A DNA stretch of 64,000 nucleotides from assembly GCA_014161675.1 (NCBI GenBank), contig GCA_014161675.1_4760.1. The stretch is one strand, 5' to 3'. This DNA is from a phage. Positions 22,844-34,259 of the stretch are shown here, one piece after another. A program made the position numbers and the translations under genes. The notes under the pieces were generated by a model, which was not told where the DNA came from, did no database searches, and saw nothing but the letters and a program-made list of their open reading frames with translations. Every line of letters starts with the position of its first letter. The stretch's first letter is position 1.

Positions 22844-23104
22844 CTACTTTTTCAAGATTTTTTTAATTGCGTTCCAAAGACCTTTATTCTCAGGTTGTTT
22901 TGGTTCTTCAATCAGTGTCCAGGTTCGACCGTCTAAGTGTGCACAATTTTTAAGACAAATAAAAATCTGGTGTCCCTTATCATCACGGATATAACCACTA
23001 TTCGCAAATCTTTCATGTGGTGTATATTCATACAGTGTATTTGGTGTAATATACTTGCGGTTACTATAAGGTGTCATCACATACATCATGGTACTAACTC
23101 CCAA
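22844..23104 (-). CDS. hypothetical protein, CSHL-motif domain paralog
   Basis: GYIRDDKGHQIFICLKNCAHLDGRTWTL. Confidence 0.45.
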   Translation of the reverse strand: MGVSTMMYVMTPYSNRKYITPNTLYEYTPHERFANSGYIRDDKGHQIFICLKNCAHLDGRTWTLIEEPKQPENKGLWNAIKKILKK

Positions 23105-23280
23105 CGATCACCGCGAAGATGAGAACATCCACCATCAAGAAGTATCGTAATACGATAACCTATATCATCTTTGATGTAACCGATTGTCGGTGGATTTTCG
23201 TCGTCTCGTGTCGGGGTAAAATCATACATCTTTCCAGGCGTAATATCTTGTCCTTTATTGCTATTGGTATAAACTTGCAT
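23086..23280 (-). CDS. hypothetical protein, CSHL-motif domain paralog
   Basis: GYIKDDIGYRITILLDGGCSHLRGDRWEL. Confidence 0.45.
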   Translation of the reverse strand: MQVYTNSNKGQDITPGKMYDFTPTRDDENPPTIGYIKDDIGYRITILLDGGCSHLRGDRWELVP

Positions 23281-23301: not shown

Positions 23302-24000
23302 CTAACCACGGGTATAGTGTTCCAGAACAACTGTCAGATGAATATATTCTAATAGATCTTTCCAAAAGTCAACATCTGGTTCTTCCGGCATACCGTTTTT
23401 CTTTGCCTCTTCACGCGCGAGTTTAACACGCTCGTAGAGATCTTTCAATTCTTCCCGCACATTATCAAAGGTTCTTTCTCCTAACTTACACGCTAAAATA
23501 GAAGAACGTCGCGCGAGCGGGAATTGTAGATCACCAGTTTGATAGATTTCAAGTAGCTGATAACCAACACGCAGAGCATGAGAAAGATCTTTCCAGTTAC
23601 TGAAATACTTTTCAGATTTGGCTACCTGCTTTTTGAGATAGCCAGACAAACCCCACATACCAACATGATAGAATTTATCGCGATGTGTTCGGATGTATTC
23701 CCATTCTCTGGAGGATTCAATCAACATGTTACTAGGAGCGTGCACCATGTCAATAGCGCCGATATCGCCTTTACATGCCAGATTGATAAACCGTTTTAGA
23801 CTGAACATATTAACGTCAATGTCGTCTTTGGTGTTCTTGATCCCTTGACCGCTAGTGCTTTGATCATAGTGTTCTTTCATCGATCCTAAGATAATTTCTT
23901 TCGCAGTCGGAACAAAGATACCACGATAATCTTTATCTGAATTTTCAGTATCAAGGCCGTATAAGTGAGATCCGAAGACCATTTTAACCATTGTATGCAT
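23302..24000 (-). CDS. Pol-beta-superfamily nucleotidyltransferase (unknown specificity)
   Basis: FGSHLYGLDTENSDKDYRGIF = hG[GS]x9-13D[DE]h NTase signature, followed by second acidic motif DIDVNMF. Confidence 0.55.
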   Translation of the reverse strand: MHTMVKMVFGSHLYGLDTENSDKDYRGIFVPTAKEIILGSMKEHYDQSTSGQGIKNTKDDIDVNMFSLKRFINLACKGDIGAIDMVHAPSNMLIESSREWEYIRTHRDKFYHVGMWGLSGYLKKQVAKSEKYFSNWKDLSHALRVGYQLLEIYQTGDLQFPLARRSSILACKLGERTFDNVREELKDLYERVKLAREEAKKNGMPEEPDVDFWKDLLEYIHLTVVLEHYTRG

Positions 24001-24018: not shown

Positions 24019-24612
24019 TTAAACATATTCAGCAACAACATTATGTTTAAAATTACCGCTCATTTTTGGATTTGGATTTTTCAATCGACTATGTATTAAA
24101 TTTTTGTTGTATCCGGTTGCTTTAGACGCTTCGCCAATACTTTGATAAACAACACCATTAACACGAATCGGACGAGACTTCTTAAACAGTTTATTCAATC
24201 CGGCATCATATGCATGGTTTTGGTTTTCTTGTCTCGTTGCGATCTCAAGATTCCAAACACAATTACAAGATTTTACCCCACTTTTATGATTAATTTCAAG
24301 CCCTTCACAATCACCTATAAAGTGTTCAGCAACTAGTCTATGAATATAGCGATATTTCTTAGTTTCCCCGTCATGCAAGCATATATTATAATAACCATCA
24401 CCAGCGCGTTTAGGTCGGAGTAGTTTACCTTTAACACGTTTTATAGTAGGGAACTCACCAAATTGATTTCGCTGGATAAACGGAATCTCGCGGTCTAATG
24501 AACGGATTCGACCATAGTTAGACACTTGATAAAAACTTTCATAGCCTTTAATTGGCTTCCATATCTCAGGAATTTCTACACCATCAATAACAACAAGTTT
24601 AAATTCTTCCAT
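24019..24612 (-). mobile_element. free-standing HNH homing endonuclease with NUMOD4-like N-terminus
   Basis: YESFYQVSNYGRIRSL (NUMOD4-like), HRLVAEHF...INHKSG...NLE...ENQNH (HNH). Confidence 0.75.
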
Positions 24613-24660: not shown

Positions 24661-25077
24661 TTACATAGATTCCGTAAAGGTACGGGTGATAATATCAAGT
24701 TGTTGTTCGCGTGTCAAGGCGTTGAAGCGGGTAGCATAACCACTGATTCTAATAGTCAATTGCGGGTACTTCTCAGGATGTTCAACCGCGTCCAGCAACA
24801 TTTCTCGTAACAATACGTTAACATTCAAATGCTGACCACCTTCGACAACCGGAGCACCATTATCTACAATAACAGGACGGAAGCTAGTTGTGTGCAGTGC
24901 CAGCGAATCGACGTCTTCTGCGGCGATCACATGGTCTTCTGCGAAAGTTTTACTAACAATTACTTTAGCGCCGATCAGGGCTTTCGGTTCGGATACCAGA
25001 ATCATAGGCGCGAAATGTCCACCGATAATAGTACCTTTATGCTCACCTTTCATGATTTGAATTGCTTTAAATTCCAT
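24661..25077 (-). CDS. autonomous glycyl radical cofactor (GrcA/YfiD-like; T4 Y06I-like)
   Basis: [12 protein letters not shown]...[20 protein letters not shown]...TFTESM, near-identical to the GrcA glycyl radical domain. Confidence 0.8.
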
Positions 25078-30660: not shown

Positions 30661-30903
30661 TCATAGCGTACAAAGCCATTTAAAAGCACCACATAAAGCG
30701 AGCAGAATACTAGGTATAAACGAGACCATAACAAGTTTGCAAAAATCATCTAAGGTAACGCCGGAATAGCTACCTACTGTAACAACACCTATCATCAGAC
30801 ACAGAAAGAAAACAAATGCAACCAGAAACAAAGTATTGCTAAACAGTTTAGTGATCATTAGACACCCCACGACGATCAATTTCAAAAACTTTTTTACCAT
30901 CAA
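30661..30903 (-). CDS. small membrane protein
   Basis: 80 aa. Confidence 0.4.
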   Translation of the reverse strand: MMVKKFLKLIVVGCLMITKLFSNTLFLVAFVFFLCLMIGVVTVGSYSGVTLDDFCKLVMVSFIPSILLALCGAFKWLCTL

Positions 30904-31051
30904 CGAAGCATGTCACAACTGCCTCGTTGACTTCCGCAAATTGTTGTGTTACCCACTTAAGGTCAGAGCGAAACAATGTTCTATTAATAACAAATGTTTT
31001 ACCGCTCTTATCCTTACCCATAAATTTTGCTTTAACCATATCCAATTCCAT
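30848..31051 (-). CDS. hypothetical protein
   Basis: 67 aa ORF. Confidence 0.35.
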   Translation of the reverse strand: MELDMVKAKFMGKDKSGKTFVINRTLFRSDLKWVTQQFAEVNEAVVTCFVDGKKVFEIDRRGVSNDH

Positions 31052-31060
31052 ATTATCACC

Positions 31061-31219
31061 TTATTTGCTAATCGCTAAACCCAATCCGAAGAGAGCACCC
31101 GATGCTACAGTATACCCGAAAGTTTCAAATGCAGTAAAGATATCTAAGCCACCAGCTAACAGAGTTGCAGTAAACAGAGTACCAGCTACGAACATAAAAG
31201 TTTTACCGATGAATTTCAT
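31061..31219 (-). CDS. small hydrophobic protein (52 aa)
   Basis: own translation MKFIGKTFMFVAGTLFTATLLAGGLDIFTAFETFGYTVASGALFGLGLAISK behind conserved leader; below ORF-track cutoff. Confidence 0.4.
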   Translation of the reverse strand: MKFIGKTFMFVAGTLFTATLLAGGLDIFTAFETFGYTVASGALFGLGLAISK

Positions 31220-31285
31220 TTTGATTCTCCTTTCGTTTGTTTGTGGGGGTATCTTACTACCCCCGTTTCATGTTGTCAACTATTT

Positions 31286-31663
31286 TTAAGAATATTTTAC
31301 TTCGTCTACAATGTCTTTCATGACATTGATTTCCATTCCGGTCAGAACACGTTGGAACATGTGCTGCACATACGCTTTCAGGTATTCATTTGATGGCTTA
31401 CTATCGAAAGTCTTTTTAGTGTAGTAGTCATCACCGAAAGCTACTGTAATTACATTTTCGTCGTCGTTCCAAGCGATATAAGCAAATTTGCCGTTATCCC
31501 AGAAGCGAGCACTAATTGCTACTTTTGTTGAATCGAATCCTACTTCGCTGTGAGATTCAAGAACTACTTGCGTGCCAGTTTCTTTATGAATGTAGTATCG
31601 GGATACTAAGTCAAAGTTACGGGTGTAGTGACATTCGAATTTATCTTTAAACATCATCATCAT
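31286..31663 (-). CDS. hypothetical protein
   Basis: start at MMMMFKD behind conserved leader; promoter and terminator upstream. Confidence 0.5.
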   Translation of the reverse strand: MMMMFKDKFECHYTRNFDLVSRYYIHKETGTQVVLESHSEVGFDSTKVAISARFWDNGKFAYIAWNDDENVITVAFGDDYYTKKTFDSKPSNEYLKAYVQHMFQRVLTGMEINVMKDIVDEVKYS

Positions 31664-31740
31664 TTTGATTCTCCTAAGTGTGTTTCGTTTCGATATGTGC
31701 ATTATGCTATAGTCGTTTATGGTTGTCAACACCTAAAAAC

Positions 31741-31765
31741 AAAAAACCCCGAAAAAATTTCGGGG
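31741..31765 (-). terminator. rho-independent terminator after 57B
   Basis: minus sense CCCCGAAATTTTTTCGGGG + UUUUUU. Confidence 0.6.
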
Positions 31766-31772
31766 TATAGAA

Positions 31773-32243
31773 TTACAGTTTGGTCGTCCACTCCAGGTCT
31801 AGATCTTCGACATACTCATGAGATCGGACAATCTCTAAATCGAACTCTAGGTCAGTGCCAAATTTACGCGCACCAACATCATAAGAAAGCGTGATATGCG
31901 GTACATATTCAGGATAATCCCACGTCGCGCCTAAAGCAGTGCCTATATCGTGTCTGAATTGCATGTAGTCGCTTTCAAATGCCAACACAAGCGCATTAGT
32001 ACCGGATTGAGTTTCAAACACTTTAAGATGGCATAGAGAGCCTAAAAACTTTTCACCCTCTTCTGGTATAAACGGAACATAGACACGAGAATATAAGATA
32101 GTGCTATGCAGTTTATCACGAGGAACGGCATTAGGCAGATCGTAGAACTCCTGCAATTTTTCAATGCGGTCTAGTGTATCCTCAGTGAATTTAACCGCCG
32201 CATATGTACCTTTAACGGATTCTCTAAACGGGGTCATAATCAA
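31773..32243 (-). CDS. 57B: 2H phosphoesterase, T4 gp57B / Acb1 (anti-CBASS nuclease) homolog
   Basis: two H-x-T motifs (HSTILYS, HITLSYD) about 70 aa apart; sits directly upstream of 57A and gene 1 as T4 57B does. Confidence 0.65.
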   Translation of the reverse strand: MIMTPFRESVKGTYAAVKFTEDTLDRIEKLQEFYDLPNAVPRDKLHSTILYSRVYVPFIPEEGEKFLGSLCHLKVFETQSGTNALVLAFESDYMQFRHDIGTALGATWDYPEYVPHITLSYDVGARKFGTDLEFDLEIVRSHEYVEDLDLEWTTKL

Positions 32244-32497
32244 GCCTCCGTGATCAGTTCTACTTCCTCTTCTGCGGCTTCGTCTTTAGGGAGAAGTGCT
32301 TTCACTTCTTCGACAATAGCATCAAGGGAAACAGTGCCGTTTTCGTCTGGCTGAATACCCAGAATGCGTACCAGTTCCATCAATACACGCTCACGATCTT
32401 TCAGTTGACCTTCTAAGAATGCGGCCTTTTCTTGAGTGTCAAACAGACGTACTTTCAGGACATTAATCATTTGTTCATGCTGATTGGACATATTCAC
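32240..32497 (-). CDS. 57A: tail fibre assembly chaperone gp57A-like (coiled coil)
   Basis: 85 aa helical protein between 57B and gene 1. Confidence 0.5.
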   Translation of the reverse strand: MNMSNQHEQMINVLKVRLFDTQEKAAFLEGQLKDRERVLMELVRILGIQPDENGTVSLDAIVEEVKALLPKDEAAEEEVELITEA

Positions 32498-32523: not shown

Positions 32524-33180
32524 TTAAATGTTCGCGAGAATCGCGCTTTCAAATTCTTCTAATGTACCATTATTTATGATAATGGTTTCACCGTCAATAG
32601 GCAAAATTCCTTTTTCGGTGGAGTGAGTCGATACAATACCAGTATCACGCTGAATATGCAACACCTTAGCACCCATAGCACGCATGAGAGCAATTTCAAT
32701 AGGCTGACGCACATCAACCACTACAAAATACCCTTCTTCATTTTTGCGCTTCATAAACTCATCCACAAAGAGATTACACCAATAAAGCGGATTGATCAAG
32801 TTAACCATTATATCAGTACCGAGAGTGGTTAACATGAGACGAATAGACCAGACGTTATTATGTTTTTCGCCGATCTCATTAACGACCTTGTAAATCTCAG
32901 CCAGACGATCACAAGTAAAGGAACTACCGCCATACTTCGAATCTAGCATAAGCAGACACTGAATAAACCACTTATGCGCGGTATAGGTATCAATACCTAG
33001 ATCGGCTTCTCTGTCACGCCCTAACCCGTCAAAGTCAAGATAAGTCAGACCTAAGTCTGGTTGACATTCGCATAAGATTTCTTTGATCGGTGCTGCCAGT
33101 TGATAACTATGCCCATCAATTATTAACGCGGCAGTGTCTTTTCCTACTCGCTTTTTACCACAAAGTGCAATCAATTTCAT
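32524..33180 (-). CDS. 1: deoxynucleoside monophosphate kinase
   Basis: MKLIALCGKKRVGKDT P-loop start closely matching T4 gp1. Confidence 0.9.
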   Translation of the reverse strand: MKLIALCGKKRVGKDTAALIIDGHSYQLAAPIKEILCECQPDLGLTYLDFDGLGRDREADLGIDTYTAHKWFIQCLLMLDSKYGGSSFTCDRLAEIYKVVNEIGEKHNNVWSIRLMLTTLGTDIMVNLINPLYWCNLFVDEFMKRKNEEGYFVVVDVRQPIEIALMRAMGAKVLHIQRDTGIVSTHSTEKGILPIDGETIIINNGTLEEFESAILANI

Positions 33181-33195
33181 TATATAAGCCTCTTA

Positions 33196-33786
33196 TTACT
33201 TTCTAAAAGCAGGGTGCATAGCTTTAATACCTTCCACCCGCTGACGATCCGCCGCCTGAATTGCTGGGCGAGGAACGATCAGTTGACCATCACGTTCAAT
33301 GCTCATTGTTTTAAAGGGAAGAATTGCAGTACACACCAGAGATTCATGCATATCATCGGTGTATGTTAACTCAAGTTCCCCCAATTGTGAACACCAACAA
33401 CCATAAAAGTTAAAAGTGCACACAATGTTACGTCGTTCGTTGTCCATCATGTGAACTTGAACGGCTTCCGGCATTGAATCCTTCCACGCAGTGGAGTTAC
33501 CGTTATTGTAGTCTACTATAGAAAGCATCCATGTGTAAAGGTTTAGATAGCTTTCCAAATGCTCATCGACAATAAACCGGACTACCAACGGGTCAAACTC
33601 CACATGACTAGACGGATAATCAGCGACCGCCAAACCATATTGACCAGCAACTTGCTTAGTAGGTGGAATGGTTATAGCAGGAAGTGTAACACCTTGAGCA
33701 TTTAAAGTAAAGCCTTTTGTTAGTTGTCCATCTGGAATATTGATCTGCCAGTTGCTAGGGTTAGCATAGTTAAAGAGATTAGACAT
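33196..33786 (-). CDS. 3: tail completion / sheath stabiliser gp3-like
   Basis: position between gene 1 and gene 2 as in T4; 196 aa. Confidence 0.55.
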   Translation of the reverse strand: MSNLFNYANPSNWQINIPDGQLTKGFTLNAQGVTLPAITIPPTKQVAGQYGLAVADYPSSHVEFDPLVVRFIVDEHLESYLNLYTWMLSIVDYNNGNSTAWKDSMPEAVQVHMMDNERRNIVCTFNFYGCWCSQLGELELTYTDDMHESLVCTAILPFKTMSIERDGQLIVPRPAIQAADRQRVEGIKAMHPAFRK

Positions 33787-33975: not shown

Positions 33976-34230
33976 ATGACAGAAGACATTTTGTTAAAAC
34001 TCTATGATCGTCTGGATAACGAATTGGCAACATTGCGGGGTGAAGTTCTCTATTTGTCTAAATGCAATACAGATCTGCTTAAGCAGATTGCAGAAAGGGA
34101 TGATCAAATAAAATCCCTTTCAGGTGCATTACGTGATCGCGACAAGGCATTAGAGATTTTACAGCGTGTTACCAATAAGGAAGAATTAAAAGACTTCTTA
34201 CATGGTTATGCTCATGCTATCGATCTATAA
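33976..34230 (+). CDS. hypothetical coiled-coil protein
   Basis: 84 aa ORF on opposite strand between genes 3 and 2; GAGGAC RBS 7 nt upstream of ATG. Confidence 0.4.
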   Translation: MTEDILLKLYDRLDNELATLRGEVLYLSKCNTDLLKQIAERDDQIKSLSGALRDRDKALEILQRVTNKEELKDFLHGYAHAIDL

Positions 34231-34259
34231 TAAAAAGCCCGTCAATGACGGGCTTAATG

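Follow-up and report, generated by a model that had tools for sequence, protein, structure and literature searches.

A Predicted Acb1 Anti-CBASS Phosphoesterase at the Gene 57B Position of an RB49-Like Coliphage

Introduction

The product of phage T4 gene 57B (NP_049750.1), the founding anti-CBASS nuclease, is the accession to which Hobbs et al. gave the name Acb1 in 2022 (PMC9117128). Its catalytic tetrad consists of H44, T46, H113, and T115; the bases of the ligand stack on the aromatic residues Y12, W74, F107, and W147, adenine N6 is contacted by E141, and a C-terminal lid (residues 145-152 in both T4 Acb1 and its counterpart from Erwinia phage FBB1) closes over the ligand (Hobbs et al. 2022, PMC9117128). 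The same study tested nine further acb1 homologues, all nine of which cleaved both 3'3'-cGAMP and cAAA (PMC9117128).

The lid is needed for activity, that is, for catalysis. T4 Acb1 cleaves the adenine-containing signals 3'3'-cGAMP, cUA, cAAA, and cAAG on the 3' side of adenosine, but not cGG or cA4, and work with T4 delta-acb1 phage has established that Acb1 protects the phage from CBASS in vivo. The FBB1 enzyme, from a phage of another host genus, has been crystallized both in its apo form (PDB 7T26) and with 3'3'-cGAMP (PDB 7T27).

Here we describe a gene located within a 64,000-nucleotide stretch of phage DNA (NCBI GenBank assembly GCA_014161675.1, contig GCA_014161675.1_4760.1; hereafter the window). 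It very probably encodes Acb1, as the Krischvirus (RB49-type) orthologue of T4 gp57B, and its product is a predicted anti-CBASS 2H phosphoesterase.

Results

Origin of the DNA and Structure of the Gene

Identity of the window DNA to RB49 is approximately 98.4%, and to other Krischvirus isolates it reaches 99.2%; around the gene, the DNA is 98-99% identical to approximately 60 Krischvirus genomes, among them those of RB49, JSE, and FL15. This identifies the window as DNA of an RB49-like coliphage. What can be observed directly for the gene itself comprises an open reading frame, its homology, the conservation of residues with assigned roles, synteny, and an operon and terminator context. The gene and its internal features are as follows.

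31773..32237, minus strand: acb1 (gene 57B) coding sequence, 154 amino acids plus a TAA stop codon (31775..31773), with its ATG start at 32237
32245..32249, minus strand: Shine-Dalgarno sequence GGAGG of acb1, within the 3' end of gene 57A, read directly from the sequence
32100..32108, minus strand: first catalytic motif, H44-S-T46 (CAT AGC ACT), aligned with H44/T46 of T4 and FBB1 Acb1
31890..31898, minus strand: second catalytic motif, H114-I-T116 (CAT ATC ACG), aligned with H113/T115 of T4 Acb1
31776..31796, minus strand: C-terminal lid segment LEWTTKL (residues 148-154, with W150 equivalent to T4 W147), placed by the alignments

An open reading frame occupies the full interval 31773..32243 on the minus strand and would specify 156 amino acids if read from its first possible start, a TTG at 32243. 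We rejected this codon: it lies only 1 nt from the GGAGG, it overlaps the stop codon of 57A (TGA, 32242..32240), and the RB49 annotation of gene 57B uses the ATG that corresponds to position 32237, which in the window is separated from the GGAGG by 7 nt. The true start is, therefore, almost certainly the ATG at 32237. Because the gene has a good Shine-Dalgarno sequence and is followed by a terminator (see below), we regard it as a real, expressed gene.

Homology to the Acb1 Family

The protein matched the Pfam Acb1 model (PF23474) with an E-value of 1.5e-51 and 174.4 bits, far above the curated cut-off of 27 bits, and its residues 9-152 covered profile positions 1-143 of 144. T4 gp57B/Acb1 was 47% identical over its full length (E 3e-47), and FBB1 Acb1, the only relative by sequence in the PDB, was 53% identical over residues 10-153 (E 1.8e-43; 142 of the 144 crystallized residues aligned). 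No NCBIfam model matched the protein. Homologues were present in 1,476 phage records, with 56 at 99% identity or higher and nearly all others below 60%. The closest, RB49 gp57B (NP_891697.1, RB49p126), is 100% identical: it has the same 154 amino acids and the same ATG, and there are no differences at the protein level.

A single-sequence AlphaFold2 model of the 154-residue protein (mean pLDDT 37.5, pTM 0.36) was too poor to be used for a fold search; from the 53% identity to the FBB1 protein, whose crystal structure was solved at 1.1 Å, we infer a compact 2H fold.

These data support the Acb1-type identity proposed in the original prediction, which rested on a reading of the DNA alone: the family match is strong, the T4 and FBB1 enzymes are homologous over essentially the whole protein, and, as described below, the catalytic and ligand-contacting residues are retained. 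That prediction had proposed alignment to T4 Acb1, with inspection of the catalytic His and Thr positions, as a check on itself, and the full-length alignment places the entire tetrad in aligned columns. It was also right to describe the gene as an expected counter-defense gene and not a new one. At the level of sequence, acb1 of the window is already known: its product belongs to an established family and is the same protein that was deposited as part of the RB49 genome in 2003. A literature search combining Acb1 or CBASS with RB49 or Krischvirus found no paper, and with it no biochemical or genetic test of any Krischvirus Acb1.

The HxT Motifs and Their Evidential Weight

The protein contains two H-x-T/S motifs approximately 70 residues apart, the arrangement by which the 2H phosphoesterase superfamily is recognized. 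Both motifs had been correctly noted in the original prediction as H46-S-T48 and H116-I-T118, numbers that apply when the protein is read from the TTG; numbered from the ATG they become H44-S-T46 and H114-I-T116, and H44 and T46 then coincide with the numbering of T4 Acb1. The further statement that two such motifs define a 2H phosphoesterase did not hold up. Among 92 stop-to-stop segments of 100-220 amino acids drawn from all six frames of the window, 4 contained at least two HxT motifs and 11 contained at least two Hx[ST] motifs. The motif pair by itself is thus weak evidence, within the range of chance, and it acquires its significance from full-length homology.

Conservation of Catalytic and Ligand-Contacting Residues

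All nine residues to which Hobbs et al. assigned a role are kept in the window protein, as H44, T46, H114, T116, Y12, F74, Y108, W150, and E144, and according to the alignments each is either identical to its T4 counterpart or an aromatic replaced by another aromatic. The two enzymes thus share the HxT/HxT tetrad, the adenine-reading glutamate, the aromatic stacking positions, and the lid tryptophan, but differ by W74 to F, F107 to Y, and overall length (152 amino acids in T4, 154 in the window). F74 and Y108 are the residues present in the crystallized FBB1 protein, which agrees with the window protein at Y12, H44, T46, F74, Y108, H114, T116, the glutamate, and the lid tryptophan. An alignment of seven Straboviridae homologues (T4, FBB1, and representatives from Acinetobacter, Aeromonas, Vibrio, and Klebsiella phages) showed Y12, H44, T46, H114, T116, and E144 to be invariant down to 34% identity.

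The lid is complete, with L148-E-W-T-T-K-L154 of the window protein aligned to L145-D-W-A-D-D-L-K of T4. A two-residue insertion is located before the last strand, near residue 131, where the window protein reads D-L-E-F-D-L-E and the segment is shorter in both T4 and FBB1 (E-Y-K-V-P in the latter). Judged from these alignments, the insertion is the only notable difference of the window protein from T4 and FBB1 Acb1.

Genomic Context

The gene is the last member of a compact minus-strand module, whose other members and flanking signals are listed here.

33196..33786, minus strand: gene 3 (tail completion/sheath stabilizer), first in the module (Pfam Phage_T4_gp19, E 1.9e-07; phrog_45, E 4.9e-43; RB49 annotation)
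32524..33180, minus strand: gene 1 (dNMP kinase; Pfam DNMK, E 4.5e-68)
32240..32497, minus strand: gene 57A (tail-fiber chaperone; Pfam GP57, 27.6 bits against a cut-off of 27; phrog_1002, E 3e-26)
31735..31766, minus strand: intrinsic terminator found by a terminator scan, a 9-bp GC-rich stem (ACCCCGAAA/TTTCGGGGT) with the loop TTT, followed by TTTTTTGTTTTT
31701..31729, minus strand: sigma-70-type promoter-like site, TTGACA-17-CATAAT (11 of 12 positions; consensus match only), serving the next gene downstream

The order on the minus strand is 3-1-57A-57B, with gaps of 15, 26, and 2 nt, and it is kept in T4, in RB49, and in Aeromonas, Vibrio, Klebsiella, and Acinetobacter phages. The original prediction, which gave no strand, was thus correct in assigning the gene to the 57B position by synteny with T4, but not in calling it upstream of 57A and gene 1: that description applies only to plus-strand coordinates, and in the direction of transcription 57B lies downstream (3') of both. 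The stop codon of 57A is 2 nt before the acb1 ATG, and translation of acb1 is coupled to that of 57A.

The terminator begins 6 nt past the acb1 TAA, and its RNA folds at -12.8 kcal/mol (z -3.3 relative to shuffled sequences). The promoter-like site beyond it delimits the 57B transcription unit. In T4, 57B is likewise followed by a stem-loop and an early promoter, PE2. Further sigma-70-like matches inside genes 1 and 3 are matches to the consensus only, and we do not claim them as promoters of 57A-57B. The T4 late-promoter motif (TATAAATA) had no site near the module; the window as a whole contains 5 sites against an expected 6.2, which is no enrichment.

The neighbors in RB49 are those of the window: 57A, 1, and 3 on one side and RB49p125, RB49p124, and dmd on the other. 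Conversely, the genes that follow 57B differ from those of T4. There, the next gene is ipI, whereas in the window a 124-amino acid gene and a 52-amino acid gene, neither with an assigned function, precede dmd.

Absence of Recognizable Acb2 and IpI

Searches with T4 Vs.4 (the Acb2 sponge) and T4 IpI (tblastn, and phmmer --max), which are sensitive to sequence-level similarity to those proteins, returned no homologue of either one from the window or from the complete RB49 genome; the best E-value was approximately 3. Acb1 may be the sole anti-CBASS factor recognizable by sequence in the genus Krischvirus.

Discussion

By analogy with the work on T4 and FBB1 Acb1, we infer how the window protein acts chemically, which substrates it cleaves, and that it counters CBASS. 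On that model, a small, metal-independent 2H phosphoesterase would be made during infection and would bind the cyclic di- and trinucleotide messengers synthesized by the CD-NTases of host CBASS systems. Aromatic residues would stack on the bases, the glutamate would read adenine N6, and the C-terminal lid would shut over the ligand. The enzyme would then strain the bound cyclic nucleotide so that the 2'-OH of adenosine could attack the 3'-5' phosphodiester over the HxT/HxT tetrad, forming a 2',3'-cyclic phosphate on the way to a linear product that ends in a 3'-phosphate. Removal of 3'3'-cGAMP, cUA, cAAA, and cAAG would leave CBASS effectors unactivated and the abortive-infection response silent.

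A different role is implied by existing annotation, since RefSeq and phrog_755 name the 57B protein an RNA ligase: the protein would then be a LigT-type 2'-5' RNA ligase or 2',3'-cyclic nucleotide phosphodiesterase active in RNA repair, for example in healing tRNA that has been cut by host anticodon nucleases. The likeness to LigT/ThpR proteins extends to the two HxT motifs that are common to the whole 2H superfamily, to the presumed 2H fold, and to a metal-independent transesterification that proceeds via a 2',3'-cyclic phosphate. It is also reflected in matches to Pfam 2_5_RNA_ligase2 (PF13563; E 0.0011, 19.4 bits) and LigT_PEase (PF02834; E 0.057, 14.1 bits). These matches are weak, partial, and below their thresholds (27 and 23.3 bits, respectively), whereas the Acb1 model matches end to end at 174 bits, and on this basis we rejected membership in the RNA-ligase/LigT family; no NCBIfam LigT or ThpR model matches the protein either. 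What sets Acb1 apart from LigT/ThpR is a distinct ligand pocket with a C-terminal lid, both suited to cyclic oligonucleotides, and the residues used for their recognition (Y12, F74, Y108, W150, and E144) are conserved here together with the lid. RNA repair in RB49 is, moreover, provided for by a separate PseT kinase/phosphatase and RnlA ligase, and the name 'RNA ligase' is older than the characterization of Acb1 in 2022. A role in RNA repair is thus highly improbable. The notion that this is a chance reading frame with coincidental HxT motifs would draw on the recurrence of such pairs in comparable segments of the window, but can be dismissed in the face of full-length homology with E-values of 1e-43 to 1e-51, of homologues in so many phage records, and of a Shine-Dalgarno sequence, a terminator, and translation coupled to that of 57A.

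Somewhat less remote, though still quite unlikely, is that the protein is a genuine Acb1 whose main physiological substrate in the hosts of Krischvirus is not the one that T4 Acb1 acts on, through a narrower or shifted range or through another signaling defense, so that 'anti-CBASS' would be only partly correct. The 2H phosphodiesterases of T4 Acb1's structural group are reported in the literature to vary in substrates and products, with specificity set by the enzyme core, and T4 Acb1 itself also degrades 2'3'-c-di-AMP. At 47% identity to the T4 enzyme, the replacements at residues 74 and 108 and the two-residue insertion could shift substrate preference. Set against this, the ligand-contacting positions are all conserved in kind, F74 and Y108 are those of an FBB1 enzyme crystallized with 3'3'-cGAMP, and every one of the diverse homologues assayed by Hobbs et al. 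cleaved both of the signals noted above. An Acb1 with the T4-like activity outlined here is the reading that we prefer.

The apparent lack of Acb2 bears on how such an enzyme might be deployed. Panoptes is triggered in T4 infection by Acb2, not Acb1, although over-expressed Acb1 can trigger it. Because Acb2 was not found and is the Panoptes trigger, we propose, as a speculation with rather long odds, that RB49-type phages are Acb1-only in their response to cyclic-oligonucleotide signals, evading CBASS without tripping decoy-nucleotide defenses, and that the substrate range of their Acb1, through its core substitutions and two-residue insertion, is perhaps tuned accordingly. Given the same apparent absence, knocking out acb1 in a Krischvirus would test CBASS evasion more cleanly than doing so in T4.

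The value of acb1 in this phage lies mainly in annotation and experimental design, and it adds little new biology. RB49-like phages used in host-range or defense tests should be expected to resist CBASS systems whose signals are cyclic di- or trinucleotides containing adenine, and over-expression of Acb1 might bring sensitivity to defenses that sense cyclic-nucleotide depletion.

Neighboring Genes and Annotation

Product names given to acb1 in RefSeq, in PHROG-derived annotation, and in the public records of the genus are either 'RNA ligase' or 'hypothetical protein'. These names are a matter of annotation lag and not of biology, the Pfam Acb1 match being unambiguous.

Just downstream of acb1, with two genes between them, is a homologue of the Dmd antitoxin (30848..31051, minus strand; Pfam Dmd, E 7.8e-15). 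The first of the intervening genes, the direct downstream neighbor of acb1, encodes the 124-amino acid protein (31289..31660, minus strand; phrog_15253), for which we found no Pfam, NCBIfam, or meaningful PDB match; the best PDB hits, to HLA chains at an E-value of approximately 0.09, are attributable to chance. The second encodes the 52-amino acid protein (31061..31219, minus strand), between the 124-amino acid gene and dmd. Two known counter-defense genes thus flank two uncharacterized ones at the place that ipI occupies in T4 (30848..31732, minus strand), an arrangement that suggests a small anti-defense islet in which the latter two genes are candidates.

On the other side of the module, an 84-amino acid open reading frame with weak coiled-coil-type Pfam matches (33976..34230, plus strand; RB49p130 in RB49) lies on the opposite strand between gene 3 and gene 2, and a terminator-like hairpin (34255..34235, minus strand) directly follows gene 2.

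Farther away, the slot of T4 vs.3-vs.5 contains two adjacent small open reading frames of 86 and 64 amino acids (22844..23104 and 23086..23280, both minus strand). Neither has a Pfam match; at 40% identity (E 8e-13), the two form a paralogous pair that shares the pattern G-Y-I-x-D-D-x-G ... C-x-H-L-x-G-x-x-W.

Lastly, a 197-amino acid HNH homing-endonuclease open reading frame (24019..24612, minus strand; Pfam NUMOD4, E 4.3e-18; HNH_3, E 2.5e-10) is located between an nrdC.11-like nucleotidyltransferase gene (23302..24000) and vs.6/GrcA (24661..25077). In RB49 this site is without a gene, and the sequence occurs in only 9 phage records, compared with approximately 60 Krischvirus records, which makes the open reading frame a mobile element that some genomes carry and others lack.
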